From positions 85,064,001 to 85,128,000 of the forward strand of contig OZ024743.1 of the NCBI GenBank assembly GCA_964016885.1: a stretch of DNA of 64,000 nucleotides. Direction: 5' to 3'. The notes under the pieces were generated by a model. The model worked only from the letters and a program-made list of their open reading frames with translations, was not told the DNA's origin and ran no database searches. This DNA is from Eledone cirrhosa. Lineage: Eukaryota. A program made the translations under genes and the position numbers. The first letter of the stretch is position 1; the number at the start of each line of letters is the position of its first letter. Shown here piece by piece: positions 8,278-63,864 of this stretch.

Positions 8278-8763
8278 CCCCACCTGACAACACAACACAG
8301 ACAACAAAACGCAAGCTCACTCAAGAACAACAAGCAAAAACAAACACAACAACACAAAAACTCTACACATACATAAACAAAAACAATAAAAACTTAACAG
8401 AAAAATAGACAACAACCCTTCGGTACAAACCGAAGGGCCGAATTTTGCAATGGCAATGGGACTCCCTAACCTGAAAATGGGGAAAGTCCCACTTGACATT
8501 TTCAAAACATTGAAAAACATTTACCCTGAGGACGTGGGGCCACCCTGCACCAGGCCACTCAACCGCGTCCTCCTGAAAGGTTTTCCCCTCCCCTCCGCAA
8601 ACACCCACACAATTCCAATCACCCCAACCCCTCCACACACTAATACCCGCACACTACCACAAACCACCACCCCACCCAACAACCCCTCCAACACCCCCAT
8701 GTAAACTGAGCAGCCCGGACCCCGGGACGCAGAGAGGTAAGTGCCTCTTTCTTTACCACCAAC

Positions 8764-12751: not shown

Positions 12752-12833
12752 TAACAGCATTGGGATTCAAACCCATCTCTCCAAAGAGACTGGTGCCTAA
12801 AACCAGCGCTTTAGACCATTCACCCACACTTTT
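12752..12833 (-). pseudogene. tRNA-Leu(TAG) pseudogene
   Basis: Minus strand: GTGTGGGTGAATGGTCTAAAGCG CTGGT TT TAG GC ACCAG TCTCTTTGGAGA GATGGGTTTGAATCCCAATGCTGTTA; intact anticodon arm and long variable arm, mutated T-loop and acceptor stem, T-run downstream. Confidence 0.8.
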
Positions 12834-20133: not shown

Positions 20134-20273
20134 TATGTATATATATGTATATATATATATGTATATGTATATATATGTATATATATGTATATATGTATAT
20201 ATATGTATATATGTATATATATGTATATATGTATATATATGTATATATTATATATATATAGATGTATATATAT

Positions 20274-21235: not shown

Positions 21236-21365
21236 TATGTATATATATGTATATATGTATATATATGTATATATATATATATGTATATATATGTATATAT
21301 ATATGTATATATATGTATATATATATATATATGTATATATATGTATATATATATGTATATATATG

Positions 21366-23739: not shown

Positions 23740-24075
23740 GTATATGTATATATATGTATATGTATATATATGTATATATATGTATATATATGTATATGTA
23801 TATATATATAGATGTATATGTATATGTATATATATATATATATAGATGTATATGTATATATATATATATGTATATAGATGTATATGTATATATATATATA
23901 TGTATATGATGTATATGTATATATATGTATATATATATATGTATATTGTTATACTTTGGGAGGGTCATGTTGCCAATAAGAAACACACGCACCAGTTGCT
24001 TTCACTTCAATTTATTATAATAAATTTATAAATTTCTGGTTGGTTGGTTCCACAACCAGATAGTTGTTTATATAT

Positions 24076-24120
24076 AGTCATAGTTCTTTCGTCACACACT
24101 CTGTGACCTCTTCAGTGACT
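24076..24120 (-). ncRNA. Minimal type I hammerhead in PLE 3' pLTR (family A)
   Basis: AGUCA CUGAAGA G GUCAC AGAGUGU GUGAC GAAA GAAC UA|UGACU. Confidence 0.85.
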
Positions 24121-24320
24121 GGGGATTCCTTTCTTTGTTTCTGTGCCTCTCCTTTGTTCTGTCCTACGCCATTTTGTTTCTGTGTGTGTGTTGTGTGCTC
24201 AGTCTGCGCATGCGCCACATCCGGGTGTCTGTGTGTGTTTATGTTCATTTATTTATTTGTTTATTTACATGTTACTGGTTGGTTGTTTGTTCTATGTGTG
24301 TGTGTGTTTTCATTTTGTCC

Positions 24321-27300
24321 TTAATTGTAAGTTGTGATGTTGCTGTTCCACTCATATTTTCTATTTAATTTTGGTTGTAATTCTTTTATATTTATTGCCT
24401 CTGTAATTTGTCTAAACATTGCGTCTTTTCTGTGTGTAGATTCTATTTTTATTTCTATGTTCTCTAAGTTACCCTTGTGTTCTATTTTAGCATGTTGGTA
24501 GAGTACAGATGATTCTTTACTATCTTGAAGGTCTCGCCAGTGTTCATTTATCCATTCCCCAACACTACGAGCTGTCTCACCTATGTACACTATATTTTTG
24601 TTTCTACATTGTCCTTCAGTACATCTTATGCTATACACTACATTTCTAGTTTTACAGTTAATATGGGGGCTTATTTTACAGGTTATACATTTCTTATCTA
24701 TACATGAGGGTCTTTGAAAAGGGTATGTCTTGCTAAGAAGTGTTTTTACGGAGGTACCTGGTCTTTCTACTATCTTAATATTGAGTTTATGTTTATTTAG
24801 GGCCCTTCTAAATTTGTAAGCTAATTCACCTCTAGGGGTTGTATCGATGAACATTACACTCTGGTATTTATTGCTATCATACCATGAGTTTATTCTATTA
24901 GCCTTGTTCCTAGTTCTTTCTATTCTATTCCAAAATGTGCTCCTATACAAGGGGCAGGTCCCATTTATGTCATTATTTACCATTTTTTCCCATTTGGTTC
25001 TGGCTCCTCTATACACTCTGATTTTATCTCTCTGATTGTAGCCAGAGAACTGCATACGATGGATGAAGTGTTGTATGTGTCTCTCTAGTTCTTCGGGGTT
25101 GCACATGCGGGACACATTTCTCATCACCCGTACCAAATCCGCAATCAGTATGTTGATTTTGGTATGGTCCGAAACGGCCGAGTTTCGGTGGATCAGATGT
25201 TTGGAAGTCATGGGTTTGGCATAATGGGAATGGAGGATTTGTTTTTTGTTATTAATGGTATCTAACCAGAGCTCTGTGTCTAGTACAGGTAATCGATGGT
25301 TGGGGTGTTTACTTGGGTAGTCTATAGTAACTCTAATGCTCTGGTGGATGGAGTTTGCTATTTGCTGGATGCTTTCCATTGTGTTTTTCTCTAGTTCCTC
25401 ACTGTTCTCTAGTGGGGGTGTCTTAACTACGATGTTTATATCATCTACGTAGCGGGAGTACATTATCAGGGTTAAGGGGTCTTCTAATTGTTCTTTAAGT
25501 TTAAGTTTAAGTCTACTGTCCCACCATACCATGAATAAGTTAGCTATGTCCCCTGCAATGCTAACACAAATGGCTGCTCCTTCCTCTTGAGCATATGTTT
25601 TTCCATTAAATTTGAACATATGTTCCTTAAGGGTTAGTTTTATGCTGGCCCCTACCACATGTGCAATCATTTTCTTCAGTTCATCGTGGTTTTCGGGTGT
25701 CCGTATGGCTCTGGTCCACCCGTTCCATCTATCGGTGTGGGTTTTCTTGGCCATTGAGGTAATGGTAGGTGGTCTGCCTCTTGCTGGTCTTGTAGGGCAC
25801 AGGTTGCTAAGGTCATATGTGTCTAGGTAATTATTACTATAGGTAAGCTTAAGTAGGAGTCCCAGCTCACTGGTATCAATCCCACGGAACTCAACATTGC
25901 TCTCACTGATCATTTCTACGCATTTCTCCACAGCAAAATCCACGTCAATAGATGGATACAGGGACACAACATCCATACTGCCTATTATGCAGTTTGTTAA
26001 GTCCCCAGATCGGTTACTCACGTCGATTCTGCTGAGGAGGTCCTCCGTGCTGTCACATACATCTGGGGACATTTCAATGATGGGGCGTATGATCAGGGAG
26101 AGGAAGTAGGACAGTCTGTAGTTACTAGCAATGTTAGCTCCACAGACTGGCCGTGTTGGTGGTCCCGCGACAGCGTCACAGCCCGTTTTATGGTCTTTTC
26201 GAAGCCCATACAACGCCGGCACGTCATTGTTCCAGGCCTGGAAGTTTTTGGCAGTCCTTTTGTTGGGCTGCATTATATTCGTCCACATCACCATATGGGC
26301 ATTGAGGGCTTTTTCTCTATCCTCATGCTCCTGTGGTGTTACCTCTCTTGTGTTAGTGATGTGGGGTTGCATTGCCTGGATGTAGTTTGGCAGGCTGTCA
26401 ACCGACATTCTGCCAGACTTGTCTGTTGGAAAGCATGCTATCTCTCCATTACGTGAGCGCTGCATGAGCTTACGCAAGCCATTTGCAGATTTTTCTCCCA
26501 GTTGCTGGGCCTCCATTCTATTATGCTTCTTGCTATACTGTTCTATAATATTTCTAAGTTCGGATCTAGCTATACTAAATTGTGCTTCTGTTTGTTCATC
26601 GACCTGCGACGACAATTGCGTGCGTTTGTTAAATGGTAAAGTCGTGGCGTGGACTCGTCGCAGGTCGAATGATTTATCGGAGGGATTATAAAACGTAGAG
26701 TTCCAGGCTGCTGCTTTATGTGTACTAGTGCTATTGTTATTGTTAGTTGTGTTGTTTCTATTTCTATTTCCACCAACAGCCTCATGGTTGTTTCTATGTC
26801 TCTCACAATTACTCCTGTCTCTTTCCACTGGCTCATTGTTGTTATCTACCCTATTTTGTGTGTTTGTCTGTTCGTCTTGGTTATTCTCTTTGTCCTTAGT
26901 CTCCCTTCTCTTTTTAATCCTATTACTTTCCCTTATTTCTGTGATTTCTGTGCTACTGTCATTACTTGTTTTCTGTGTCTGTGTGTTTGTTAAGATTGTG
27001 GTGGTGGTGAGAGGCATTGAATGTGTGTGTGTTGTTGTTGTTGATGTGTGCTGTTGTTGATGTGTGTTGTTGTTGTCTCCGTGTGTGTTATTGTTGTTGT
27101 GTGTGTTGTTATTGTTGTTTGTGTCTGCGTGTCTGTTGTTGTTGTTTCTGGGTATGTTGTTATTGTTGGTGTGTGTGCTGTTGTTATTGTTGTTTGTATA
27201 TGTGTGTCTGTTGTTGTTGGGATGTGTGTTGTATATGTGTGTGCGTATATTGTTGCTTTTGTTTTTGTTTTTGAGGCTCCAGCGTAGTTTTGTAAATGAT

Positions 27301-28007
27301 TTTTCTATTTCTGACAGACAACTAATCATATTTACCTTCTTGAATGTCGCAAATGTCGGGGGTAAACATAACACAGACATCTCATCGTCATCTATTCTTG
27401 TGTTACCGTATATATTTGTGTTGTTGTTGTTGTTGAACTCTTCTGTTAATGAGGTGTCGGCCATATTTATACCGTCAATTTTGTCGGGATATCTATTGGT
27501 ATTCTCTATAGTATCCTGATTTAGCTTTATTTGCTTAAGCCACTTTAGTTTCTTGTTAAAGTGCTTATCACATTCTTGAGTAATGTACTGTTCTTCAGGG
27601 CGTATAAGGCTTATAAATATTAGTTTCTCTCTTGGTGTGGTGATCCTAGCTATTTCTTGTATTAAGTTACGCTTATGTTTTTCTTGATGACTTAATTCTC
27701 TATAGATCTTCTTTTTTATGTTTAGAATTAATGTTCGTTTTAGCCTATCTGCTTGTTTTTTGGTGAGTTGTAATCTTCTAACGTCGGTGTTGATGGTGTT
27801 GGTGTAAACTCGGGATGAGGCACATTCTTTTATGAAGTGTAGTTGTCGAGATGGTATGGTTTTTTGTAGACAACAGAACATGGTGGTTTTCAGTATCTTG
27901 TTAGCCTGGCTAAGGCTTACGATATTTCGTTTCTGAATTTGTTTAGCAAGATTCTTTATCTGAAATCGTGTGTTGAAACCGATATTGTTATACTTTGGGA
28001 GGGTCAT
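24321..28007 (-). CDS. PLE polyprotein: reverse transcriptase + GIY-YIG endonuclease (1228 aa from first ATG)
   Basis: PTDKSG, LYGLRKDHK, PTRPV, GSMDVVSLYPSI, QEEGAAI, SRYVDD (RT); CIDKKCITC linker (Neptune/Nematis-like); VVYSIRC...YIGET and RQITEA...LNRKYE (GIY-YIG); uninterrupted frame. Confidence 0.95.
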   Translation of the reverse strand: MTLPKYNNIGFNTRFQIKNLAKQIQKRNIVSLSQANKILKTTMFCCLQKTIPSRQLHFIKECASSRVYTNTINTDVRRLQLTKKQADRLKRTLILNIKKKIYRELSHQEKHKRNLIQEIARITTPREKLIFISLIRPEEQYITQECDKHFNKKLKWLKQIKLNQDTIENTNRYPDKIDGINMADTSLTEEFNNNNNTNIYGNTRIDDDEMSVLCLPPTFATFKKVNMISCLSEIEKSFTKLRWSLKNKNKSNNIRTHIYNTHPNNNRHTYTNNNNNSTHTNNNNIPRNNNNRHADTNNNNNTHNNNNTHGDNNNTHQQQHTSTTTTHTHSMPLTTTTILTNTQTQKTSNDSSTEITEIRESNRIKKRRETKDKENNQDEQTNTQNRVDNNNEPVERDRSNCERHRNNHEAVGGNRNRNNTTNNNNSTSTHKAAAWNSTFYNPSDKSFDLRRVHATTLPFNKRTQLSSQVDEQTEAQFSIARSELRNIIEQYSKKHNRMEAQQLGEKSANGLRKLMQRSRNGEIACFPTDKSGRMSVDSLPNYIQAMQPHITNTREVTPQEHEDREKALNAHMVMWTNIMQPNKRTAKNFQAWNNDVPALYGLRKDHKTGCDAVAGPPTRPVCGANIASNYRLSYFLSLIIRPIIEMSPDVCDSTEDLLSRIDVSNRSGDLTNCIIGSMDVVSLYPSIDVDFAVEKCVEMISESNVEFRGIDTSELGLLLKLTYSNNYLDTYDLSNLCPTRPARGRPPTITSMAKKTHTDRWNGWTRAIRTPENHDELKKMIAHVVGASIKLTLKEHMFKFNGKTYAQEEGAAICVSIAGDIANLFMVWWDSRLKLKLKEQLEDPLTLIMYSRYVDDINIVVKTPPLENSEELEKNTMESIQQIANSIHQSIRVTIDYPSKHPNHRLPVLDTELWLDTINNKKQILHSHYAKPMTSKHLIHRNSAVSDHTKINILIADLVRVMRNVSRMCNPEELERHIQHFIHRMQFSGYNQRDKIRVYRGARTKWEKMVNNDINGTCPLYRSTFWNRIERTRNKANRINSWYDSNKYQSVMFIDTTPRGELAYKFRRALNKHKLNIKIVERPGTSVKTLLSKTYPFQRPSCIDKKCITCKISPHINCKTRNVVYSIRCTEGQCRNKNIVYIGETARSVGEWINEHWRDLQDSKESSVLYQHAKIEHKGNLENIEIKIESTHRKDAMFRQITEAINIKELQPKLNRKYEWNSNITTYN

Positions 28008-28118
28008 GTTGCCAATAAGAAACACACGCACCAGTTGCTTTCACTTCAATTTATTATAATAAATTTATAAATTTATGGTTGGTTGGTTGGTTCCACAACC
28101 AGATAGTTGTTTATATAT

Positions 28119-28163
28119 TGTCATAGTTCTTTCGTCACACACTCTGTGACCTCTTCAGTGACT
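28119..28163 (-). ncRNA. Minimal type I hammerhead in PLE 5' pLTR (family A)
   Basis: Same motif as 24076-24120, with one change at the distal end of stem I. Confidence 0.82.
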
Positions 28164-28407
28164 GGGGATTCCTTTCTTTGTTTCTGTGCCTCTCCTTTGT
28201 TCTGTCCTACGCCATTTTGTTTCTGTGTGTGTGTTGTGTGCTCAGTCTGCGCATGCGCCACATCCGGGTGTCTGTGTGTGTTTATGTTCATTTATTCATT
28301 TGTTTATTTACATGTTACTGGTTGGTTGTTTGTTCTATGTGTGTGTGTGTTTTCATTTTGTCCTTAATTGTAAGTTGTGATGTTGCTGTTCCACTCATAT
28401 TTTCTAT

Positions 28408-28447
28408 CTGAAGAGGTCACAGAGTGTGTGACGAAAGAACTATGACT
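28408..28447 (+). ncRNA. Truncated hammerhead (family A) lacking the 5' strand of stem I
   Basis: The inverted pLTR fragment begins exactly at CTGAAGAGGTCAC...GACGAAAGAACTATGACT. Confidence 0.65.
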
Positions 28448-28728
28448 ATATATAAACAACTATCTGGTTGTGGAACCAACCAACCAACCAGAAATTTATA
28501 AATTTATTATAAATTTATTATAATAAATTGAAGTGAAAGCAACTGGTGCGTGTGTTTCTTATTGGCAACATAACCCTCCCAAAGTATAACTATATCGGTT
28601 TCAACACACGATTTCAGATAAAGAATCTTGCTAAACAAATTCAGAAACGAAATATATATGTATATATATATATGTATATGTATATATATGTATATACATA
28701 TATGTATATATATATATATGTATATATG

Positions 28729-31508: not shown

Positions 31509-31907
31509 TTGGCGGTACTCAGTAATAGAGAAGACCCGCCTTACCTAAATACAAAGTAAAACCTACTACAGTCAGTAGGCATCTCTAACAAAATACACCC
31601 CCGTCCCACCACCCCCACCCCATCCACACCGCCCCCTTCTATGTAAAGTTATGCTGGTGGCACATCATCCAGGCCAAAACAAATGAGGTCGTGTAGGTGT
31701 CACAACAAAAAAAAAACACAGTCCACGCTGTAATGTGGCCGTGTAGGCAACACGGTAAAAACCTCCCAGTCCCACACTGTAAATGTGGTTGGTGTTAGGA
31801 AGGGCATCCAGCTGTAGAAAACCCGCCAGACAGTCCTATGCGAGCAAGACAACCACTCTTGCCTCAAGTGGGAAAACTCCCGTCCAAACCTATGCAAGCG
31901 TGGAACA
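31509..31907 (+). mobile_element. RTE LINE 3' end fragment, tail lost
   Basis: [12 protein letters not shown] plus 3' UTR near-identical to 38593-38990 and similar to 58444-58920; fused to a family D fragment. Confidence 0.85.
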
Positions 31908-32311
31908 AGGTTTACATATACATAAAGTTATAGATATATATGCTGCAACCGGTCACTTTTAGGCTCTATGAAGAATTAATAAATTAAATAATCAGAGCAA
32001 TATATCATAAATCATGTCCTTAGAATTATTAGATAAAATATATACCATTTCCTCTTCCAATTAGCATAATTAACCATATAAAAAATCAATTAGACCAAGC
32101 TATAAGAAGAAAGGCTCTTATGAAGAAATCTCCGACAAATAACCGAAAGTGGCCTCTTCACGGTGGCCCCAATAGAGTATTTATCCAACATTTCGATAGC
32201 ATGGAGAAATTGACTAAATATACCATCAACCATACACAATTAGGTGTAAAATTAAACTTAGAAGAAATGTGTACATACCGTAATTATATCTCTACCATGG
32301 TTTCATCCGTA
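31908..32311 (-). mobile_element. Fragment of 656-bp hammerhead unit (family D)
   Basis: Near-identical to 20832-21235, including the same break inside the ribozyme. Confidence 0.85.
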
Positions 32312-32446
32312 TATGTATATATATGTATCTATGTATATATATGTATATATATATGTATATATATGTACATATATATATGTATATATATGTATATATATAT
32401 GTATATATATGTATATATATATATGTATATATATGTATATATATTT

Positions 32447-33056: not shown

Positions 33057-33311
33057 ATATATATATGTATATATATATGTATATATATGTATATATATGT
33101 ATATATGTATATATATGTATATATATATATGTATATGTATATATATGTATATATGTATATATATGTATATATATGTATATATAATGTAGGAGGTGAGTTT
33201 TATTGTAGTACAATAAAGCAATGCAGATATCGGATAAGAAGCACTCTACAGTTTGTGGGACTGGAGTATGCATAATATAAGATCAAAAGATGGTTAAAGG
33301 AGTTCAATATA

Positions 33312-33378
33312 TTTTATTATGCGCATTTCAAAAACAAACATCATCAAACAATAATATTTGTGTTTTCATCAGATAAAA
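33312..33378 (-). ncRNA. Type I hammerhead ribozyme (family C), element-sense copy
   Basis: UUUUAU CUGAUGA [AU-rich stem II] GAAA UGCGCA UA|AUAAAA; palindromic stem III AUGCGCAU. Confidence 0.85.
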
Positions 33379-34581
33379 CAGGAGAACATGATATGAAGGC
33401 TAAAAAAAACACTTGTTGATAGTGCAGTTTTAAATCAACATATGAAAAGTGGTTTTAGATTGATGTGTGATATTGGGAAAAATATTTTATTTAGAGAGGG
33501 GGGGGAGAAAAGGATGAAAAGGGAAGGAGATGAGAGGGAGAGATGGGTGATAGAGAGAAAGAGATAGTTTTTATAACTGAGAGGAGATATATTTTATATA
33601 GAGGGGTTGAAAACCGTTGGAAGATACTGTATAAATTAAAAATTTTGAAAATTAACGAAGGGAGGATATGTGCGAGGAAAAAATATATTATATTTAGGGA
33701 GGGGGGGGGGGGTGGAAAGGATGAAAAAAAGGGGAGGAGATGAGAGTGAAGGTGGAAAGGGAGAGATGGGTGATAGAGAGAAAGAGATAGTTTTTATAAC
33801 TGAGAAAAAGATATAATGTTTTAATATAGGGAGGTTGGGAACCGTTGGAAGATAATGTATAAATTAAAGGAATTTGAAAATTAACGAAGGGAAATTATGT
33901 ATGAAGATAGAGAGAAAAAAAAAATAATAATTGTGGGTGAATATTCTAACGTCAAAAGAAGAAATGTAGGAATTTCAAAATTAGCAAAGAGAAAAAAGTT
34001 TATGTGTAGAAGGATTTGAGAAAAATAATGTAAAGTTAAAGTTTGTATATTGAATTCATATGTATTAATAATGAGTTCGTTGATGGGGAGAAAAAAATAA
34101 TAATAAATTAAGGATGAAATTGAGATTAAAAAGATTTATAATAGAGAGAAAAAATAATAATGATTGCGGATGAATACTCAAAATGTCAAAAACAAATGTT
34201 ATTGTTTTACGAGAAGATAGAATGAGGGTAATGAGTAAACGAGTATTATAGAGTGTATAATGCCCTTTAAAGTAAGGTAGATGGGTATATTTTAAAGAAT
34301 ATATGAGTATATATTAAAAAAAATATAATAATAAATTAAGGATGAAATTGAGATTAAAAAGATTTATGATAGAGAGAAAAAATAATAATGGTTGCGGATG
34401 AATATTCAAAATGTCAAAAACAAATGTTATTGTTTTACGAGAAGATAGAATGAGGGTAATGGGTAAACGAGTATTATAGAGTGTATAATGCCCTTTAAAG
34501 TAAGGTAGATGGGTATATTTTAAAGAGGTGTATGTATATGTGCCTTTGAGAAAAGATTCTAAATTGATAAAGAATTGAATA

Positions 34582-35725
34582 TTAACTGTATACTTTGTGA
34601 AAAGTTCTATGGAATTTATGCAGGCAGATAGAAAACAAATCTGAGCGTCTATTTATTATGGATTCTAGGTTAGAGATAATGGTAAATTTTTCATTTAGGC
34701 AGAGATTACAGATTTTAGATAGAGAGCTGTTCAAGTATGAGGATGCAGAAGAAATCTTTTTCCAAAAGATGTTATATTTAATGTTTTTGTCTTTTAAGGA
34801 CCATATGAGTTCTGAGAGAGCAGTGTTAGTTCTTTTAAGTTTGTATTTGAAAGATGAATGATGATTATAGAGATGAGCTTTAAAAGAGGTGGAAGTGGAG
34901 CCAAAATAGGTGAAGGAATTGGTGCTAGTTATAATTTTACATTCATAAATTAAGTTTTTATCGAGGCAATGGTTGTTGAGAGGACATTTATTTTTAATGC
35001 GGCAGTTGCAATTAGAGAGATTATTAATGAGTGATCTAGTGTTATCTATAGAAGGAATTGGATTGGAGAAGTTGTTTGCGATAGGAATAATAGGAATAAT
35101 AGTTTCTTGATTTAGAGTTGGATTATGAACATTTAGCGAAGTTGTGTTTGACGTTGCATTTGGGTTTACAGAAGTTAGCCTAGGGTTTACAATGACGTCA
35201 GGAGTACTATTACTGTTATTATGAAATTCAATATTGGAAGGAAGAGATTTAGTATTTAATATTTTGTTGTTGTGTTTAGAGATGATGTTGGAAATATTGG
35301 AGGATGTAGAATACGAAAATTTGATGGTGTGTTTGTTAAATATTTTACTATAGATATGTGAGGGAGGGAAGCATTTATTTAAGGCACTAAAAAATAATTT
35401 AGGAATATTGTTATTAATAGAGATGGAGAAAGGAGCATTATACCAGATTATGTTTTTGTATCTAGGTCTTTTATTAGAATTATTGGAATGGTTATGATTA
35501 AATATTCTACTGTAAGTTTTCCTAGAATTTGTTTCTTTATTATATTTGATTTTATCTGGATAGCCGGCTTTAGAAAGTGCGTTATTATAGTAATTGGCGT
35601 TAGCATCAAAGATGTTTTTATTAGAAGATATGTTAGATATTCTATTTCCAATATTATTAACTATAGCATTCTTGATATTGGTAGGATGGTTAGATTTAAA
35701 GTTATTCCTTAACTTTAAATCTAAC
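34582..35725 (-). CDS. Naiad-type PLE RT thumb + GIY-YIG endonuclease, 5'-truncated but open
   Basis: SNHPTNIK, RISNISS, YNNALSKAGY, IIWYNAPFS, KIFNKHTIKFSYS, CNCRIKNKCPLNNHC, LIYEC...YFGST, TALS, CNLCLNEK, NRRSDLFSICLH. The start in the ORF track lies inside the inverted fragment and is artefactual. Confidence 0.88.
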
Positions 35726-35742
35726 CATATCATGTTCTCCTG

Positions 35743-35809
35743 TTTTATCTGATGAAAACACAAATATTATTGTTTGATGATGTTTGTTTTTGAAATGCGC
35801 ATAATAAAA
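35743..35809 (+). ncRNA. Type I hammerhead ribozyme (family C), inverted copy
   Basis: TTTTAT CTGATGA AAACACAAATATTATTGTTTGATGATGTTTGTTTTT GAAA TGCGCA TA ATAAAA. Confidence 0.85.
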
Positions 35810-35850
35810 TATATTGAACTCCTTTAACCATCTTTTGATCTTATATTATG

Positions 35851-36453
35851 TATATATATATATATGTATATGTATATATATGTATATATATATATATGTA
35901 TATATATATATGTATATATATATGTATATATATGTATATATATGTATATATATATATGTATATATATGTATATATATATATGTATATATATGTATATATA
36001 TGTATATATATATATATGTATATGTATATATATGTATATGTATATATATGTATATGTATATATATGTATATATATGTATATGTATATATATGTATATGTA
36101 TATATATGTATATGTATATATATGTATATGTATATATATATATGTATATATTTGTATATATATATATATGTATATATGTATATATATGTATATATATATA
36201 TATGTATATGTATATATATGTATATGTATATATATGTATATGTATATATATGTATATGTATATATATGTATATATATGTATATGTATATATATGTATATG
36301 TATATATATGTATATATATGTATATGTATATATATGTATATGTATATATATGTATATATATATATGTATATATATGTATATATATATATGTATATATATG
36401 TATATATATATATGTATATATATGTATATATGTATATATATATATGTATATGT

Positions 36454-37033: not shown

Positions 37034-38450
37034 TAATCATCATCATCATCATTTTACGTCCGCTTTTCCCTGCTTGCAAGGGTGGGATGGGTCTTATTCA
37101 GCACAGCATCTCTCCACTCGTCACGGTCCCTCGTCATCTCCACCGTGAGCTTCAATGATCTGAGGTCTGTTCTCACCACCTCCGCCCATGTTTTTCGTGG
37201 TCTACCTCTACCACGTCTTCCTTCAACTGGCATTTCCTGGCACTTCTTCACCCATCGGTCATCCTCCATGCGCATCACATGTCCATACCACCTCAGTCTC
37301 CTCTCCCGTACACTACATTCTAACCCTCTCAGACACAGTTTCTCTCTCAACACATTTATGCTGGGTCGTTCACGCACATTTACACTGCACATCCAACGGA
37401 GCATGCTTGCCTCATTTCTCTCCAGCCGTCGCATATCTTCTGCGGTTGCTGCCCATGTCTCACTACCATGCAGCATCGCGCTCCTCACACAGGCATCATA
37501 CAACCGGCCTTTCGTACGCAGGGAGAAACCCTTCTTCGTCAACAGAGGAAGCAGCTCCCTAAACTTCTTCCAACCCGTCCTTATTCTAGATACTATGGCC
37601 TCGGAACACCCTCCTCCCATGCTAATCTGATCTCCTAGGTACCAGAAGCTATCCACCACTTCTATAGCGCCCTCTCGCATTTGAAAAATGTGTCTAACAG
37701 TGCGACTTCTACTGTCTAATTTCCCTGTACATCTACTGCATACATATTTCTCCCTACCTGTTAGTTTGCCTGCTATCCCGCTACATCTCTTGTGTACCCA
37801 GGACCTGCATTGTGTGCATTTTATAGAATTTATGCCAGTTCCTTTTCTGCATATCGAACATGGCCATTTCCCTGACGGAATCAGGGTTTTGTCCTCTTTT
37901 CTACTCATCAACACTTTTGTCTTAGCTAGATTTACTCTCAGTCCTCTTGCTTCCAACTGCTGTTTCTATAGCCGGAATTTATTCTCTAGCTCCTCTACTG
38001 ATTCTGCTATAAGAGCCAGATCGTCAGCATAGAGAAGTTCCCATGGACAGCCAGTCTTAAACTCCTCTGTTATGGCTTGGAGGACTATAATGAACAAGAG
38101 CGGGCTGAGGACCGAACCCTGATGTACTCCTACTTGTATCTGGAATTCCTCACTAAACTCCATTCCTACCCTGACTTTACTGAGAGTACCTCTGTACAAA
38201 GTTTGCACTGTCCTCACAAGCCATTCCTCAACACCTAGCTTCCTTAGGGACCACCAGATGACAGATCGGGGTACCCTATCAAAGGCCTTCTCTAGGTCAA
38301 CAAAGGCTAAGTATAGTGGCTTATTCTTCTCTAAGAACCTCTCTTGCATTTGTCTCACCAAGAAGAGGGCATCTGTTGTACTCTTCCCAGGCACAAAACC
38401 AAACTGCATCTCATCTAGTTTGGCCCTTTCTCTAATTAGTTGTGCTAAAA
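37031..38450 (-). mobile_element. 5'-truncated RTE-clade LINE (RT + Cys-rich insert), one frameshift
   Basis: [48 protein letters not shown]...[21 protein letters not shown]; (GAT)n tail. Confidence 0.93.
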
Positions 38451-38480
38451 TCCTTATATATATATATGTATATATATATG

Positions 38481-38531
<51 letters not shown>

Positions 38532-38592
38532 GTATATATATGTATATATATATATATATATGTATATATATGTATATATATATATATATATA

Positions 38593-39019
38593 TTGGCGGT
38601 ACTCAGTAATAGAGAAGACTCGCCTTACCTAAATACAAAGTCAAACCTACTACAGTCAGTAGGCATCTCTAACAAAATACACCCCCGTCCCACCACCCCC
38701 ACCCCATCCACACCGCCCCTTTCAATGTAAAGTTATGTTGGTGGCACATCATCCAGGCCGAAACAAATGAGGTCGTGTAGGTGTCACAACAAAAAAAACA
38801 CACAGTCCACGCTGTAATGTGGCCGTGTAGGCAACACGGTAAAAACCTCCCAGTCCCACACTGTAAATGTGGTTGGTGTTAGGAAGGGCATCCAGCTGTA
38901 GAAAACCCGCCAGACAGTCCTATGCGAGCAAGACAACCACTCTTGCCTCAAGTGGGAAAACTCCCGTCCAAATCCATGCAACCGTGGAACATGGACGTTA
39001 AACGATGATGATGATGATG
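38593..39019 (+). mobile_element. RTE LINE 3' end fragment with (GAT)n tail
   Basis: Same start as 31509; ends GGACGTTAAACGATGATGATG. Confidence 0.87.
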
Positions 39020-39055: not shown

Positions 39056-42000
39056 GCCATGTCTAACTTAATAGCACCACCTGGCGAAGTCTTTCAATTC
39101 AGGATTTGGGCACCATGGCCCATTCGAGAAGAGAATTAGTGTTTGCGGAGACATATCCGGGTGTGGGTGGTTTGTCCGGGATTACTTGGAGAAATTTGTC
39201 CAAAGACTTCTTGAATTTTGTGTGGTCAGTTTCTGTTTTGATGTGTCCTGGTGTGATGTTGAAGAGAGCAGGGCCAATTGAGGTGAAATAATTGTGCCGT
39301 ATTGTTGTTATGAGTTGCGATTTAGATTTTTGTTTGGGGCGGATAGCACGGGGCCCAAGCCTTGCGTGTATTTTGAAGGTGATGCCAACATCATTTGGGC
39401 AGTGCTGATGAAACATTTTCCACATCATGCAGATAATATAACGCTCACGGCGACGTTGGAGTGAGTAAAATTTCAGCTTTTCTAGTCGACCCCAGTAGTC
39501 AAGGTCTGACATGTCATCTATCTTTTTCGTGATTGCCCTTTGGGGAGCTTCAAGTTTCATGATACTTTGTCTCATGTGGGGAGACCACAGTGGACAACAG
39601 TATTCAAGGTGTGGTTGGGCAAAAGTGGAGAAGAGAAGGATAATGGTGTGGGAATCTCTCGACTGGAAGGTTCTGAGGATCCAGGAACACATTCTGCGGG
39701 CCATGTCAACTTTGCTGCTTATATGCGTGGCCCAGCTTATGTTGCTGTCCACGGTTACTCCCAAGTCTCTGATGTTGTTAGATGCCACGAGAGTTTCACC
39801 GGAGGGAAGGGAGTATGGGAGTTTCAGAGCATCCTCTTTTCCAAAGTGGATCAGTTCGAATTTGTCTTCGTTCAGTAACATGTTGTTCTTTTCCGCCCAT
39901 TGGGTAAAACCAGTAGGTCTGACTGAAGGCTTATCCGGTCATCCACGCCATTGATGACCTTTTGGAGCTTGGAATCATCAGCGAAAATTCTAATGTTGTT
40001 GTGTTTGATGATGTCAGTGATGTCATTAATATAGATGATGAAGAGAAGTGGGCACAACACAGTGCCTTGTGGGACTCCACTACTGACTTTGGCTGGGCTG
40101 GATTTGACTCCTTCAACTACAACATGTTGGGTTCTGTTTGACAGGAAGCTCTTGATCCACTGCAGCAGCTTTCCAGTGACACCAATATTGGACAGCTTTC
40201 TCAGTAGAATGTGATCAACCCTGTCAAAGGCCTTGCTGAAATCAAGGTAGATAACATCAGTGTTGGAACCCTCTCCCAAGGCTCTCAAAATGTCATCAAA
40301 GTGATGCAGTAGCTGTGTCAGGCAATCCCTTCCATTACGGAATCCATGCTGGTTGGAGTTCAGCATATTGTTACTCTCAAGGAAGTGAGTCATTCGCGAT
40401 CTCACCACTCTCTCAAATACCTTAATGATATGAGAGGTGAGTGAGATTGGACGGTAATTCACGGCAAAGGATTTGTTTCCTTTTTTGAAAACTGGGACAA
40501 CAGACTGGGATAGAAGGTTTTCTGGCACATATCCAGCATCCAGTGAGTTCCGCCACAGATTGGCAAGAGGAGATGCAAGTTGGTGTTGACACGCCTTCAA
40601 GACACAAGCAGGGAACCTATCGGGACCTACTGCTGAATTATGCTTGATTTTCTTTATTGTCGCTAAGACAGCAGGGGCGCCAAACGTTATGTCCGATAAG
40701 GTGTAATGGGGAGTAACATCGCCGATACAGCCCAGATCGGCCATATCAGGATTGCTGAAAACAGAGCAGTATTGTTTCTGCAGTATCTCACCCATGGTTT
40801 TAGCATTGTCTTGAAGAGTGCCATTTTCATCAATTAGAGGGCCAACAGTAGAGCCAGTGATTTTGTGTTTTTTTGCAAATGAAAAGAACACTTTGGGATT
40901 GAGTTTGATCTTCTCAATGGCCCAGGCCTCTTCAGCTCTTCTCTGATTGTTGATGATAGACATCATATTGTTTTGGAGGTTATGTTTTTTAGTCTCTAGT
41001 GATGAAAATGGCAGTCAAGTTGATGTGTTGCTGCTGACAGTATTTCAGCTTGTTGATTTTTTTGTTAGTTCTCTTAATTTTCCTGATGAGCGTTTTTCTA
41101 TTTCTAGGGATTCTGCTCTTAGATTCGTTTATAGTTCTTAATGGGGTGTGTTTTGCACATATGTTTGTAACAGTGCCCACAAATGTCTGCCAGGACTTTT
41201 TGATGTTAGTGGGTGTGTGAGTGTGCGTGAAAGACCAGTCAACATGTGCAAGATCATGACTGATCGCTTCCCAGTTTGCATTGTGGAAATCCATAGCGTC
41301 AAACGGATGGACAGGAGAGATGACATTGGGTTTGTATATTGGACGGTGGAATCTCAGATCACAGAGAACCATGTCATGATCAGAGAGTAGAGTTTTCTCC
41401 ACTGCAATATTGTGGATAGTGTCAGTGTGATTGCTGAAAATTAAGTCTAGGACGTTTTTGTGGCACCTTGTTGGTTCGAGCACCAGTTGGGACAGGAAGA
41501 AATCATCCATGAAGTCAAGAAGCGATTCCACTGCTTCTCTGTCAGAGGTTGAGGCAGAAGAACCTGGTGGCAGGCTGTTTGTGGACCAGTCAACTCCGGG
41601 GAGGTTGAAGTCCCCCATCATTAAGATGTTGTCAGGGTGACACTCTTGGATGAACCACTTTATGCTGTTGAGGCATTCCTTGAAGCATGGTAGAGGCGTT
41701 TGGGGTGGCCTATAGAGCCCAACTACTAATAGGTTGTTGGTTTGACTGAATACAGTGACTGCTTTGCAGTATCCATTAGAAAATATGTTCATAGCCTCTG
41801 TTGAGAAAGAATTATGGACATAAATGGCAGTCCCACCCTTTCTTCTGCCAGCGCGATCAGCATGGATGGCTTTGAAATTTTTCACTTTCACCTCGGCTTC
41901 CAAGTGGAGGTTACTGAGATGGGTTTCAGTGAGGACGAAGAAAGGGATGTGGTTTGGATAGACATCAACCCAGTCCTCCAGGAATTTGATCTTCCATTTT

Positions 42001-42128
42001 TGAGTATTGGTGGAAGGGCTGATGCCTTGGGCGTTAAGCAAAAATGTTGAGGCGAGAGTGGATGGTTTTAATTGTTTTGGTGTGTTGTTAATTTGTTTGT
42101 TTGTTAATGGCAGCAATGGGAGTTTGTG
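39056..42128 (-). mobile_element. CR1-group LINE, ORF2 (APE + RT) with frameshifts, ORF1 missing
   Basis: LNAQGI, LTETHL, LYRPP, GDFNLP, LDLIF, SDH (EN); NYRPISLTS, QHGFR, YLDFSKAFD, SGVPQG, FADD (RT); LEYCCPLWSPH, SLQRRRER. Confidence 0.92.
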
Positions 42129-42144
42129 CATATATATATACATA

Positions 42145-42176
<32 letters not shown>

Positions 42177-42248
42177 CATATATGTATATACATATATATA
42201 TGTATATATACATATACATATGTATATATACATATACATATGTATATA

Positions 42249-42281
<33 letters not shown>

Positions 42282-42384
42282 ATACATATATACATATACA
42301 TATATATACATATATATACATATACATATGTAGATACATATATATATGTATATACATATATATATGTATATACATATATATATG

Positions 42385-42424
<40 letters not shown>

Positions 42425-42479
42425 TATATGTATACATATATATACATATATATATATATACATATACATATATACATAT

Positions 42480-43089
42480 GGTGGCTGCCAACTCGTTTTC
42501 GAGTACGGCCACTACTTTATAACCATGTAGGAGAACCCCTACCGATACGCTGAACGAGTGTGACTTTTTAGTCCAGCCAGCAACTTGAAAACTCTGGTAC
42601 AAACACTACACTTGTGACAATTATTGACACATAGTGCTGGACCCATGGTACCATGTAATGACAAGTGCAGAGAGATCTCCAGATACAAAGCAATGCCTGT
42701 GCCGTGAAGCTTTTATAGTGAGCAAAGGCACTGCACAAAGCCAGTCCCACTCTCTTAACCAAGATGATATTTACCAAAAAGAAGAACAAGTCAACATCAT
42801 TGGATACCATCAGGGTTGCAGGTGTTATATCAGAGTTTTCCTTCTCCTAGAATTCTGCCTTGACAAAGGCTAAGGGGTCATCTCTCCCGGTGATTTTGGA
42901 TGGCCATTGACTCTTAAGAGCTCCTTTGCCCTTTGACAGGTTTTGTTTTTAGTCCTGCAGGATGTCCAAAGTCACCCTCCTCACCAAGAAACCTTAGTGG
43001 GGTTGCCAGTTTAGTCGCCAACGACCCGACCATGAGACAGGTTGTACTGGGATACATGTTACCAGTAGCACCAAGTGGTGACCTGACAT
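42480..43089 (-). mobile_element. Third copy of ~610-bp bipartite RTE-derived element
   Basis: Reverse complement aligns end to end with 32447-33056. Confidence 0.82.
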
Positions 43090-54529: not shown

Positions 54530-54560
54530 TATATATATATATATATAATTATATATATAT

Positions 54561-55152
54561 ATTGTTATACTTTGGGAGGGTCATGTTGCCAATAAGAAAC
54601 ACACGCACCAGTTGTTTCACTTCAATTTATTATATATTTATAAATTTATAAATTTACAAATCTACAAACCTATAAATTTCTGGTTGGTTGGTTGGTTCCA
54701 CAACCAGATAGTTGTTTATATATAGTCATAGTCCTTTCGTCACACACTCTGTGACCTCTTCAGTGACTGGGGATTCCTTTCTTTGTTTCTGTGCCTTTCC
54801 TTTCTTCTATCCTACGCCATTTTTGGCCAAAATGGCGTAGGATAGAAGAAAGGAAAGGCACAGAAACAAAGAAAGGAATCCCCAGTCACTGAAGAGGTCA
54901 CAGAGTGTGTGACGAAAGGACTATGACTATATATAAACAACTATCTGGTTGTGGAACCAACCAACCAACCAGAAATTTATAGGTTTGTAGATTTGTAAAT
55001 TTATAAATTTATAAATATATAATAAATTGAAGTGAAACAACTGGTGCGTGTGTTTCTTATTGGCAACATGACCCTCCCAAAGTATAACAATATCGGTTTC
55101 AACACACGATTTCAGATAAAGAATCTTGCTAAACAAATTCAGAAACGAAATA
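54561..55152. mobile_element. Spacerless inverted pair of PLE pseudo-LTRs (family A), each with a hammerhead
   Basis: Arms mirror about TTTTGG|CCAAAA at 54826/54827; HHRs at 54724-54768 (-) and 54884-54928 (+) with GAAA GGAC UA|UGACU. Confidence 0.92.
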
Positions 55153-55191
55153 TATATATATAATTATATATATATATATACATACATATAC

Positions 55192-56990: not shown

Positions 56991-57262
56991 TATAAATACA
57001 TACATATATATCTATATTACATATAGATATATACATATATACATATATGATGATGATATATACATACATATATATATATATATACATACATATATACATA
57101 TATATACATATATATATATACATATATATATACATATATATATATACATATATACATATATATATATACATATATACATATATATATATACATATATACA
57201 TATATATATATATATACATATATACATATATATATATACATATATATACATATATACATATA

Positions 57263-58957
57263 TTGGAGAAAGCCTTCGACAGAGTCCCCCGTTCCATTAT
57301 CTGGTGGGCTCTTAGAAAACTAGGTGTTGACGAATGGCTTGTGAGAGCTATACAAGCCATGTATAAAGAAACAGTCAGCAAGGTTAGAATTAACAACGAA
57401 TATAGTGAAGAGTTTAGCGTAAAAGTTGGTGTCCATCAGGGCTCTGTTCTTAGCCCCCTACTATTTATTATTGCCCTTCAGGCTATAACAGAGGAGTTCA
57501 AGACCGGCTGCCCATGGGAACTCCTATACGCAGATGATCTAACGCTCATAGCTGAATCAATGGCCGAGCTAGAGAAGAAATTCCAAACATGGAAGCACGG
57601 CCTAGAATCAAAAGGCCTTAAAATTAACCTGGCTAAGACTAAAGTTCTAGTTTGTAGGAAAGAAAATAAGGCGCCGGTCCCCTCCGGGAAATGGCCATGC
57701 TCAGTGTGTAGGAAATGCGTAGGTAGAAACTCCATTTTATGTCCCAAATGCAAAGTATGGGTGCATAAAAGATGTAGTGGGATCACAGGTAAGCTAACTA
57801 AGAACATAGATTTTACATGTGGCCGGTGCTCTGGTGCAATAAGTAGCAGCAAGTGCCCACAAAATACTAGCTCTTTCAATTGCACAGAGGGTCCTATAGA
57901 AATAGTGGACAGCTTCCGTTAACTGGGCGACAAAATCAGCAGTGGGGGAGGGTGCTCTGAAAGTACAGTAGCTAGAGTCAGAACTGGTTGGAAAAAGTTC
58001 AGAGAGCTTATACCACTATTAGCCGCTAAAGGGTTCTCCCTAAGAATGAAAGGCAGGTTGTATGATGCCTGCATACGAACAGCAATGTTGCATGGCAGTG
58101 AGACCTGGGCATTGTGTGCAGAAGATATACGCAGACTAGAGAGGAACGAAGCTTGCATGCTCCGCTGGATGTGTAATAGTAACATACGTGAACGGCAAAG
58201 CATAAGCGAACTAAGGAAAAAATTAGAAATAAGAGGGATCAGATGTTGTTTACTTGAGAGAAGGCTACGTTGGTATGGTCACGTGATGCGCATGAAAGAC
58301 AACAGCTGTATAACAAAGTGCAGGGCAATAAAGATGGACGGTAGCTACGGAGTAGGCAGACCCAGAAAAACCTGGGACGAGCTGATAAATTCTGACCTAA
58401 CACACTTACACCTCTCAAAGACAATGTCACTGGACCGAGACCTTTGGCGGTACTCAGTAATAGAGAAGACCCGCCTTACCTAAATACAAAGTAAAACCTA
58501 CTACAGCCAGTAGGCATCTCTAACAAAATACCCCCCCCCCCCCATCCACACCGCCCCTTCAATGTAAAGTTATGTTGGTGCCACAACATCCAGGCCGAAA
58601 CAAATGAGATCGTGCAGACACAGTCCACGCTGTAATGTGGTCGTGTAGGCAACACGGTAAAAACCTCCCAGCCCCACACTGTAAATGTGGTTGGTGTTAG
58701 GAAGGGCATCCAGCTGTAGAAAACCTGCCAGACAGTCCACGCTGTAATGTGGCCGTGTAGGCAACACGGTAAAAACCTCCCAGCCCCACACTGTAAATGT
58801 GGTTGGTGTTAGGAAGGGCATCCAGCTGTAGAAAACCCGCCAGATAGTCCTATGCGAGCAAGACAATCACTCTTGCCTCAAGTGGGACTACCCCCGTCCA
58901 AACCCATGCAAGCGTGGAACACGGACGTTAAACGTTGATGATGATGATGATGATGAT
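57263..58957 (+). mobile_element. 5'-truncated RTE LINE with long 3' UTR
   Basis: [23 protein letters not shown], Cys-rich insert, in-frame TAA at 57920, [16 protein letters not shown]; 112-bp tandem duplication in the UTR (58621/58733); (GAT)n tail. Confidence 0.93.
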
Positions 58958-60614: not shown

Positions 60615-61139
<525 letters not shown>

Positions 61140-61144
61140 TACAA

Positions 61145-62466
61145 TGCATGAAGACCATCCTCAATAACCATAGAACAGCTGAGGAGAAATGGGCCATTGA
61201 GAAAATCAAACTCAACCCCAAAGTGTTCTTTTCATTTTCGAAAAAACACAAGGTCACTGTCTCCACTGTTGGCCCTCAAATTGATGAAAATGGCACTCTC
61301 CAAGATAATGCCAAAATCATGGGTGAGATACTGCAGAAACAATACTGCTTTGTTTTCAGCAATCCTGATATGGCCCATTTGGGCTGTATCAGTGATGTTA
61401 ATCCCCAACACACTATATCGGACATAACGTTTGGCGCTCCTAATATCTTAGAGGCAATAAATGAAATTAAACACAATTTAGCAGTAGGCCCCGATAGGTT
61501 CTCTGCTTGTGTCATCATCTACATTAATGACATTACTGACATCATCAAGCACAGCAACATAAGAATCTTTGCAGATGATTCCAAGCTCCAGAAGGTCATC
61601 AATGAAGTGGGTGACCGGATGTGCCTTCAGTCAGACCTACTGGCTGTTATCCAATGGGCAGAAACGAACAATATGCAACTGAACGAGGATAAATCTGACT
61701 TAATTCACTTTGGAAAAGAGGATGCCCTGAAACTCCCATACTCCCTTCAGGTGAAACTCTCGTGGCATCCAACATTAGAGACTTGGAAGTAATTGTGTGC
61801 AACAACATAAGCTGGGCCACTCATATAAACAGCAAAGTTGACATGGCCCACAGAATGTGTCCCTGGATTCTCAGAACTTTCCAGTTGAGAAATATCTACA
61901 CTATTATACTTCTCTTCTCCACCCCACCTTGAATACTGTTGTCCACTGTGGTCTCATGAAAGTTGAAGCACCCCAAAGGTCAATTACAAAAAAGATAGAT
62001 GGCATGACAGGCCTTGACTATTGGAGACGATTAGAAAAGCTCAACCTTTATCCTCTCCAACGTCGCCGTGAGCGCTACATCATCTGCATGATGTGGAAAA
62101 TATTCCATCAGCATTGCCCAAATGATGTTAGCATCACTTTTAAGGTACACCCAAGGCTTGGGCCCTGTGCACAACAAAAATCACACTCGCATCTCATAAC
62201 AACAATACGGAACAATTATTTCACCTCGATTGGCCCCACTCTCTTTAATATTACACCAAAACACATTAAAACAGAAACAGACCCCATAATGTTGAAGATG
62301 TCTTTGGACAAATTCCACCAAGAAATCCCGGATATGTCTCCGTAAACAATAACTCTCTACTTGAGTTAGCCATGGTGTCCAAATCCTGATTTGAATGACT
62401 TCGCCAGGTAGTGCTATAAAGTTAGACATGGCCTGGGCCAATACGGGCTAAAGCCAATCAAAGTTA
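61145..62466 (+). mobile_element. CR1-group LINE 3' part, same family as 39-42 kb, RT core deleted
   Basis: IEKIKLNPKVFFSF...GPDRFSACV joined directly to IIYINDI...FADDSKL; 3' end homologous to 39056-39130. Confidence 0.9.
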
Positions 62467-62478
62467 TATATATATATA

Positions 62479-62801
62479 TATTGTTATACTTTGGGAGAGT
62501 CATGTTGCCAATAAGAAACACACGCACCAGTTGCTTTCACTTTAATTTATTATAAATTAAATTATAAATTTAGGAATTTATAAATTTCCGGTTGGTTGGT
62601 TGGTTCAATATGAACAATCGTCTGGTTGTGGAACCAACCAACCAACCGGAAATTTATAAATTCCTAAATTTATAATAAATTGAAGTGAAAGCAACTGGTG
62701 CGTGTGTTTCTTATTGGCAACATGACCGTCCCAAAGTATAACAATATCGGTTTCAACACACGTTTTCAGATAAAGAATCTTGCTAAACAAATTCAGAAAC
62801 G

Positions 62802-62805
<4 letters not shown>
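62479..62805. mobile_element. Short inverted pair of PLE pLTR 3' halves (family A), no ribozyme core
   Basis: 62479-62606 (-) and ~62610-62805 (+) match the pLTR downstream of the predicted cleavage site. Confidence 0.88.
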
Positions 62806-62858
<53 letters not shown>

Positions 62859-62888
62859 TATGTGTGTATATATATATATATTTATATA

Positions 62889-63775
62889 AAATATAAAGAT
62901 TTACATGTACACAAACTAGACAAAGTCATAGATATATATGTTTTTGGCAACCATTCACGATGTGGCTCAATGATGAATTAATAAATTAAATAATCAGAGC
63001 AATATACTATAAATTATGTCCATAGAATCATTTGATAAGATATATACACTATTTCCTCTCCCAATCAGCATAATCAACCACACAAAAAACCAAGCTATAA
63101 GATTAAAAGGCACCTATGAAGACATAATAGATAAATAAACGACAGCCATATGGTTGCCAAAAACATATCTATGACTGTATAGTTTATGTATATGTAAATC
63201 TTTATATTGATAATCTCCCATAAGGTTGAGATGCAATTTAGGCAATATTAGGCTGCGCTTTCTAGGAACCAGCCCACTCGCCGTAAGGCACCAATCACAT
63301 TCTTTCTGACTTGACCACTGCCGCGTCACAGTTCTTAGCCATTTTGAATTCGTTTCTGGCGGGGATCATTTAAGAAAAATCTTCGTCCAAGTGAGTTTGT
63401 TTCCTGATGATTTCAAAGCTCGGAAATTTATCCTTGATCAGATATTTCCAAAAGCGAATGAAACCCTAAAGAGTAGAAACGTAATCCTGGTATGTTTATA
63501 TGCATTTTTTCTTCTAACTTTAATTTTATACCTAATTGTGTATGGTTGACGATATATTTAATCGATTTCCATGTGCTATCGAAATGGTGGGTAAATATTC
63601 TATAGCTGTTGATCGCGAATAGATGGCTGTCGTTTATTTATCTATTATTTCTTCATAGGTGCCTTTTAATCTTATAGCCTGGTTTAATTGGTTTGTTGTG
63701 TGGTTGATTATGCTGATTGGGAGAGGAAATAGTGTATATATCTTATCAAATGATTCTATGGACATAATTTATAGT
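62889..63775 (+). mobile_element. Diverged family D hammerhead unit with inverted, permuted fragment
   Basis: 63150-63775 is homologous to the reverse complement of ~20274-20875; 62889-63149 is inverted and reads across the unit junction; HHR at 63399-63480. Confidence 0.8.
63399..63480 (+). ncRNA. Type I hammerhead ribozyme (family D variant)
   Basis: GUUUC CUGAUGA UUUC-[GGAAAU/AUUUCC distal helix]-GAAU GAAA CCCUAAAGAG UA|GAAAC. Confidence 0.78.
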
Positions 63776-63794
63776 GTATATATATATATATACA

Positions 63795-63864
<70 letters not shown>

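Follow-up and report, generated by a model that had tools for sequence, protein, structure and literature searches.

Family D of Eledone cirrhosa is very probably a retrozyme that depends on Penelope machinery, with sense RNA as the template and a reverse transcriptase/endonuclease, supplied in trans, that inserts the copies into (TA)n microsatellites. On balance we also favor a more specific reading, in which the genome records hammerhead cleavage within a Penelope-type cycle, that of U·U-closed and dimer-dependent ribozymes included, and a two-subunit enzyme primes the two strands at two fixed RNA sites. The copy from which these proposals arose lies at 62889-63775 of a 64,000-nt stretch of genomic DNA, hereafter the window.

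Units of the family measure 656-685 nt, all six frames are closed, and three natural units share 67-75% mutual identity. An 18-nt motif of the ribozyme has 1,722 exact matches in the 3.0-Gb assembly and its reversed control has none; two further motifs give 947 and 2,771 exact matches genome-wide, with one and zero for the respective controls. The genome holds thousands of copies. Two types are recognized, A and B, which differ in sequence around the cut site, and a tree of 121 copies built from the flanks alone, with the ribozyme masked, resolves a ladder of subfamilies; 108 of these copies were sorted into 11 flank-defined groups, the omitted 13 being one singleton and 12 units of an array locus. 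A divergent subfamily (L264, L268, L274 and L277) has an AU-rich stretch instead of the distal part of stem II and retains the core and the proximal stems. The units are tandem and non-coding and each carries a type I hammerhead, as in retrozymes. Family D, a tandem repeat that encodes no protein, is likely a non-autonomous Penelope-like element (non-LTR retrozyme). Its features in the window are as follows.

63150-63775, forward strand: forward arm, a 5'-truncated family D unit (B type, S2a group) ending at the 3' end site E1.
62889-63149, reverse strand: inverted arm, passing E1 and ending at the second 3' end site E2 (about 62885-62890).
62889-63001, reverse strand: extension from E1 to E2 ("tail"), which places E2 about 112 nt past E1 in the B type and 101 nt past it in the A type.
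62804-62888, no strand: (TA)n target microsatellite past E2.
63776-63862, no strand: (TA)n target microsatellite past E1.
63291-63307, forward strand: CCAAT-containing conserved block upstream of the ribozyme, the motif with 947 exact matches against one in the control.
63399-63480, forward strand: type I hammerhead, predicted scissile bond 63475/63476.
Within 63399-63480, forward strand: stem I at 63399-63403/63476-63480, CUGAUGA at 63404-63410, GAAA at 63460-63463 and stem III at 63463-63474.
20268-21236, reverse strand: reference copy (A type, S6 group), a 1.5-unit partial tandem ending at E1.
20556-20632, reverse strand: reference ribozyme with a palindromic stem III, predicted first post-cut base 20560.
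31907-32312, reverse strand: third family D piece, 99.75% identical to 20831-21236 and with an identical 5' junction.

The forward arm shares 93-96% identity with the best 40 genome matches scored and, across 614 nt, 75% with the reverse-strand unit at 20268-20923. Two contig runs yielded short repeat contigs only, none of which spans this locus. It lies head-to-head with the inverted arm across a blunt joint at 63149/63150. Read in the element sense, the inverted arm runs from about unit position 482 to the 3' end of the forward copy, through a 47-nt link that is absent from the forward arm, and into the forward arm's start; it spans the last ~150 nt and the first ~60 nt of that arm, at 93% and 86% identity. 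The alignment agrees with the original prediction that the inverted fragment reads past the forward 3' end and back into the 5' start. Circular permutation, which the same prediction drew from this geometry, does not hold: the forward arm is merely cut short on its 5' side, at 63150, and the sites of the two 3' ends are fixed throughout the family. Since the forward arm ends at E1 and the inverted arm at E2, we read the geometry not as a permutation but as a partial tandem that is truncated at its 5' end and has a Penelope-type tail. The piece at 31907-32312 is likely a local duplication, and the CCAAT block at 63291-63307 is possibly a promoter element.

The ribozyme at 63399-63480 has the CUGANGA/GAAA/NUH core of the hammerhead and a three-way junction whose free ends lie in stem I, as in type I. 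CUGAUGA, GAAA and GUA are identical in this and the reference ribozyme, as originally noted, and the change of stem I from GUCUC/GAGAU to GUUUC/GAAAC keeps its pairing. The proximal part of the long stem II was said to stay paired as AUCC/GGAU changes to UUUC/GAAU, which is incorrect, because its core-closing pair is U·U. This pair is modal in 32 of 34, 7 of 7 and 6 of 6 copies of three S2 groups. A purine-pyrimidine pair at 10.1-11.1 is therefore lacking in this subfamily and also in S8, which has A·A; G-C or A-U is found elsewhere. U10.1·U11.1 is a reported natural hammerhead variant that is active (PMC3088659).

Minority alleles occupy three stem positions of this copy. The described shift of stem III from a palindrome to an imperfect hairpin is real in this copy but represents only its own decay: siblings have ACCCU-AA-AGGGU, and the imperfect allele occurs in 3 of 18 S2-type ribozymes. 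With it, nearly all dimer pairing is lost (-0.3 kcal/mol, compared to -15.3 in the sibling L006 and -11.2 in the reference). Similarly, the distal helix GGAAAU/AUUUCC is perfect here but needs an allele seen in 2 of 18 S2-type ribozymes; the true counterpart of distal UCC/GGA is UAUCC/GGAUA, which is disrupted here by an allele likewise present in 2 of 18. Pair II.5 is lost through a further minority allele (3 of 18 S2-type ribozymes). Two of the three decay alleles lie at CpG sites. The fold energy of this copy is -13.9 kcal/mol (z -0.01), compared to -21.8 for L006, and folding of single sequences gives no significance (z -0.01, -0.42 and -1.34). The Rfam hammerhead models have no match at gathering score, nor among the 150 listed of 162 weak matches. 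Without guidance, RNAalifold finds all three stems. The copy is a decayed, otherwise ordinary family member.

The family as a whole is more informative about selection. Between the modes of the 11 groups, variation affects none of 14 core columns, compared to 144 of the 389 in the flanks (p = 0.003); the pattern used to select some loci included seven core columns. Double-sided changes are seen at I.3 (U-A/C-G), II.1 (G-C/A-U), II.3 (U-A/C-G), II.5 (G-C/U-A) and III.4 (C-G/A-U), and L133, L162 and their relatives, a subfamily found via motifs outside the ribozyme, carry the double change I.4 C-G plus I.5 A-U. About ten subfamilies show at least six double-sided stem changes, alongside four fixed mismatches (II.1 U·U, II.1 A·A, II.5 U·C and I.4 A·G). 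In 28 chosen copies, 92% of stem cells are paired, compared to 33-52% in slid controls, and the 37 double-changed cells were reached by none of 500 shuffles; relatedness among the copies inflates both figures. Counted by pairs, 6 of 16 are double-changed, which 70 of 500 shuffles matched, so that this count is not beyond chance. The distal helix, where the alignment is out of register, was excluded from the 28-copy test. In single copies, stem deviations comprise 40 that preserve pairing and 55 that break it. Purifying selection on the core at the copy level was considered and set aside as mixed: core changes are rarer than elsewhere in the top-hit loci (6/868 vs 491/24,118, p = 0.003), but not in the unselected half of the core over all copies (16/658 vs 1,174/36,566, p = 0.31). 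The original claim that selection kept the ribozyme fold therefore stands at the family level, through the invariant core and the double-sided changes, and not from the two window copies alone. These comparisons support selection of the fold in source lineages, whose single copies decay.

The clearest regularity concerns the 3' ends. Among 297 distinct arms of at least 60 nt from 261 loci chosen without junction patterns, 192 end at E1, 68 at E2 and 37 elsewhere, and (TA)n flanks 228 of the 260 E1 or E2 ends. The 5' ends are scattered across all deciles of the unit. Mapped on the monomer, copies thus have fixed 3' ends and scattered starts, but not freely permuted ones. Inversions bring arms into contact head-to-head in 46 cases and tail-to-tail in 3. 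The 61 head-to-head pairs comprise 40 of E1 with E2, none of E1 with E1, none of E2 with E2, and 21 with an unclassed end. E2 accounts for 49 of 98 classed inverted arms, compared to 19 of 162 classed single arms, the remaining 143 of which end at E1. The protein-coding Penelope-like element of the window shows the same E1/E2 pairing in three of three inverted pairs, with a tail of ~60 nt. A head-to-head inversion with one E1 and one E2 bears the "tail" signature of Penelope. Minor alleles are shared 5-9 times more often among the arms and tandem units of a single insertion than between separate insertions (0.007-0.016 vs 0.001-0.002 per site), so these arms and units derive from one template lineage.

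Partial tandems, 5' truncation, an inverted head-to-head copy and two 3' ends with a one-sided tail are the marks of Penelope-like elements, and family D has them all. Together with the (TA)n targets, they place PLE-type integration on firmer ground than originally argued. ATAT-like microhomology to the target at E1 and E2 counts against our reading. Fixed ends with terminal inverted repeats and target site duplications had been named as what would point to a DNA transposon instead; the 3' ends are indeed fixed, but in the Penelope fashion, without matched terminal inverted repeats or two-sided fixed ends, and target site duplications are unreadable inside (TA)n. We regard it as extremely improbable that family D is a satellite propagated by recombination, or a DNA transposon, in which the ribozyme is carried along neutrally. 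Such a repeat could explain one long array and the occurrence of inverted ends, but these ends are unequal (E1 vs E2) and present in only some copies, 5' truncation is pervasive, and the invariant core, the compensating stems across subfamilies and the starts at the scissile bond described below also count against it. On the end census, with its E1/E2 sites and unequal inverted ends, we reject free circular permutation, a terminal-inverted-repeat transposon and a pure satellite.

The end architecture of family D is the same as that of the pseudo-LTRs (pLTRs) of the window's coding element, and one could therefore take family D for the solo pLTR of some protein-coding Penelope-like element and not for an independent unit. 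We consider this improbable: a full unit is preceded by another D unit, by an inverted arm or by unrelated flank, all six frames are closed, and 570 flanks contain no contiguous Penelope coding sequence. The lack of coding sequence joined to family D in these 570 flanks also counts against a Penelope-dependent element, as does the finding that the pLTRs of the two Penelope-like families examined have no homology to it.

The coding element just mentioned occupies 23941-28655. It has a 1,239-codon frame at 24321-28040 on the reverse strand, pLTRs in direct orientation that carry a minimal hammerhead, and one further pLTR that is inverted. We take its frame to contain reverse transcriptase and GIY-YIG-like motifs, presumably of Penelope type also because homologues are named reverse transcriptase, and we label it Neptune-like for its Cys linker. 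Pfam returned nothing for three window frames, 24321-28040 included; the best named relative of a window retroelement protein, at 67% identity, is from Octopus vulgaris. Inverted solo pLTR pairs of this element, in which one end is short and the other tailed, lie at 62478-62807 and 54558-55153, the former separated from 62889-63775 by a (TA)n tract. A second Penelope-like fragment (33250-35854) has a 394-codon frame at 34582-35766 on the reverse strand and hammerhead-like motifs at 33372 (reverse) and 35749 (forward). Another Penelope-like family (L227-L256) encodes a protein 65% identical to that of the window and has a hammerhead-like motif in its pLTR. In a survey that scored 43 of 35,893 first-look candidates for Penelope-like proteins, 39 of the 43 scored matches of this family lack stops, and the family, with its many open frames, has likely been active recently. 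The window also contains a satellite at 1-3900 (44-bp unit, ~87 copies), an integrase-like fragment at 15134-15595 and a weak tRNA-like match at 12752-12833. What we take to be broken LINE-like frames with endonuclease or reverse transcriptase motifs lie at 6913-11900, 37054-38628, 39099-42605, 56996-58483 and 60989-62345, and several are split by (TA)n.

A minority of copies start at the predicted scissile bond. A first test placed only 4 of 209 5' ends within 5 nt of it, in a sample selected through motifs that lie within the ribozyme or upstream of it, and so blind to arms that stop at the cut site. In a sample chosen by an E1-proximal motif, 3 of 91 arms start at most one base from the bond. 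We then searched the genome for a junction pattern, the post-cleavage sequence directly after non-element bases. In the B type this gives 42 matches with T at -1 in 28, A in 11 and C in 3; 31 have a base other than A at -1, one of these being an internal deletion, and 30 are unambiguous starts at the bond. When 30 B-type loci were checked, 28 proved to be true junctions and 2 internal deletions, and most of them are ~300-nt pieces from +1 to E1 within (TA)n. The control site at +75 gives 6 matches with 4 true junctions across 3 positions, although body match rates are alike for the cut site and the control (36/58 and 34/58); the comparison of 39 with 6 has p about 5e-7. In the A type, 14 of 19 matches are unambiguous starts exactly at +1, while nine upstream positions together have 13 matches and at most 11 junctions (p about 1.5e-8). 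The control background is about 1.3 or fewer junctions per position, and the use of one control site per type counts against our reading. The minimal pLTR ribozyme of the Neptune-like element shows no peak, with 7 junctions at -2 to +1 and 13 at -9 to -3 (25 loci, of which 5 are indels or duplications).

The pile-up is likely a genomic record of the ribozyme cutting RNA in living cells. Because 5' ends accumulate at the predicted bond, the template of some insertions was likely cleaved, linear sense RNA; in most copies the site is read through. Starts at the cut site include types whose nearest intact relatives have U·U (e.g. L298, L300, L304 and L308). A larger cut-site share in G-C than in U·U subfamilies was suggested by a diagnostic base (24 vs 16-18), but the two are about even by eye in an unselected sample, and we dropped the idea. 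Addition of an untemplated T at the cDNA end stays a hint, with 28 of 42 T at -1 in the B type but 6 T, 5 C, 3 G and 5 A in the A type.

The peak at +1 could instead reflect stalling of reverse transcriptase at the folded ribozyme, or a junction hot spot. There is a downstream shoulder: in a hand tally of the first 100 of 132 matches, 30 lie at +1, 14, 2, 4, 5 and 10 at +2 to +6, and 33 at +7 to +9, where TA microhomology occurs, and 2 are deletions. The raised 5' ends at +2 to +9, 68 in this tally, show that stalling or trimming contributes. Control sites are few, and TA at -2/-1 might provide microhomology to (TA)n. Nevertheless, as an explanation of the peak itself we find this unlikely. 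The upstream edge is sharp, with at most 11 junctions over nine positions compared to 14 at +1, and the structural position is identical in two types of differing local sequence. Stalling would also be expected where the polymerase first meets stem I, and the peak lies at the far end of its 3' strand. Microhomology would leave A at -1, where the observed base is mostly T (28 T, 11 A and 3 C of 42).

If cleavage accounts for the starts at +1, the form of the template for the other copies has to be considered. Read-through is common: of the 192 arms that end at E1, 154 extend across the scissile site and 89 are longer than one unit, in a sample that favors long copies. These figures would fit a main template consisting of a ligated monomer circle, primed at E1 or E2 and copied by rolling-circle reverse transcription, with a minor linear fraction giving the cut-site starts. 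Retrozyme circles have been shown in coral, mussel and axolotl (PMC7229834), and circles would also account for the sharing of alleles among the units of one insertion, which a homogeneous tandem transcript explains equally well. An array of ~45 units at C1:92.986-93.016 Mb (L122-L125), a single insertion that begins with an inverted E2 arm and finishes at E1, could be a rolling-circle product; its units have derived variants in common, some disrupting stem II, and later duplication could explain its length. L019/L315 starts at the cut site and continues through two further units with intact ribozymes, and L307 likewise through 1.5 units, so linear multimer templates are needed. As the main template the circle is therefore a tentative and rather doubtful proposal, although circles possibly served for read-through copies. 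The original inference of a tandem or circular template holds for the copies that read through; starts are not freely permuted, and those that lie at the bond indicate a linear, cleaved RNA.

In the cycle that we favor, tandem copies would be transcribed into a multi-unit RNA, only a part of which would be cut by the ribozyme. A Penelope-type enzyme would prime cDNA at E1 from nicked (TA)n, and a second subunit would prime the opposite target strand at E2, the two cDNA ends being joined to produce the inversion. Run-off at a cleaved 5' end would occur in a few percent of events, and uncleaved or ligated ribozymes would be read through in most; otherwise the cDNA would stop at random positions. 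Selection on the fold would be confined to source lineages, of which the copy at 62889-63775 would be a decayed product.

The element class itself is already known. According to the accessible parts of the literature, metazoan non-LTR retrozymes are protein-less hammerhead tandems (Cervera and de la Pena 2020, PMC7229834) related to Penelope pLTRs (Li et al. 2026, bioRxiv 10.64898/2026.07.22.740005). Like family D, they are described as AT-rich tandem units with one type I hammerhead each, in thousands of copies, from monomers to long arrays, and with Penelope-like elements alongside. Their units are 170-400 nt (PMC7229834) or 51-972 nt (bioRxiv 10.64898/2026.07.22.740005) long, compared to 656-685 nt here, and circular RNA and a related pLTR are reported for them, whereas family D is known here from genomic sequence alone. 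Neither paper, in those parts, lists among the retrozyme features two fixed 3' ends, inversions, insertion into (TA)n or copies starting at the cut site.

Penelope-like elements are described with partial tandems, inversions, a 30-40-nt tail that is often one-sided, and (TA)n targets (PMC8557442, PMC3846280). The endonuclease-bearing Penelope/Poseidon, Neptune and Naiad groups share with family D partial tandems, 5' truncation and a head-to-head inverted copy (PMC8557442, PMC3846280, PMC11167929), as well as a hammerhead in the repeat, insertion at microsatellites and a 3' tail that may be present at one end. Family D differs in having no open frame, a tail of 101-112 nt instead of 30-40 nt, and a full-size ribozyme, in which stem II is long and stem III either has 2-5 bp or is palindromic. 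Penelope-like elements with paired ribozymes on opposite strands have been described (PMC4209133). The non-autonomous Chlamys elements (MRC1) likewise have Penelope-type units, pLTRs and head-to-tail insertions, but their 3' end resembles an autonomous family and their clade lacks canonical hammerheads, in contrast to family D (PMC8557442). Purified Penelope protein, a predicted dimer, extends both target strands and initiates at two positions inside the RNA, by which the tail is defined (PMC11167929). For the anole element used there, cleavage was reportedly not required in vitro and none of the reads ended at the site, whereas genomic copies of family D begin there; its start is reported as non-homologous, in contrast to the ATAT-like microhomology at E1 and E2. 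5' junctions set by a ribozyme are known for R2 (PMC3774820; reviewed in PMC6765202), where cleavage by an HDV-like ribozyme also fixes the 5' junction and extra untemplated bases and joining by microhomology are described; R2 has another ribozyme class and enzyme, and cleavage sets its full-length ends (PMC3774820), whereas in family D it would mark a minority of copies, most of the others reading through. Literature listings and abstract openings, subscription papers aside, report no cephalopod retrozyme, no Penelope-type genomic copies that start at a hammerhead cut site and no counted one-E1-one-E2 rule. Cut-site starts and the one-E1-one-E2 rule are two countable mechanistic signatures of family D.

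Both signatures bear on the role of the hammerhead in Penelope-like elements. To account for head-to-head inversions, an antisense template was proposed earlier (PMC3846280); the starts at the bond favor a cleaved sense template, for those events at least. The strict one-E1-one-E2 rule provides genomic support for two-site priming of both strands, and the link between retrozymes and Penelope-like elements now runs through insertion anatomy and not through co-occurrence. E1/E2 pairing and cut-site starts can be counted in other genomes. If our reading is correct, the fraction of copies that start at the scissile bond would provide, for each family and from any assembly, a read-out of ribozyme activity in vivo.
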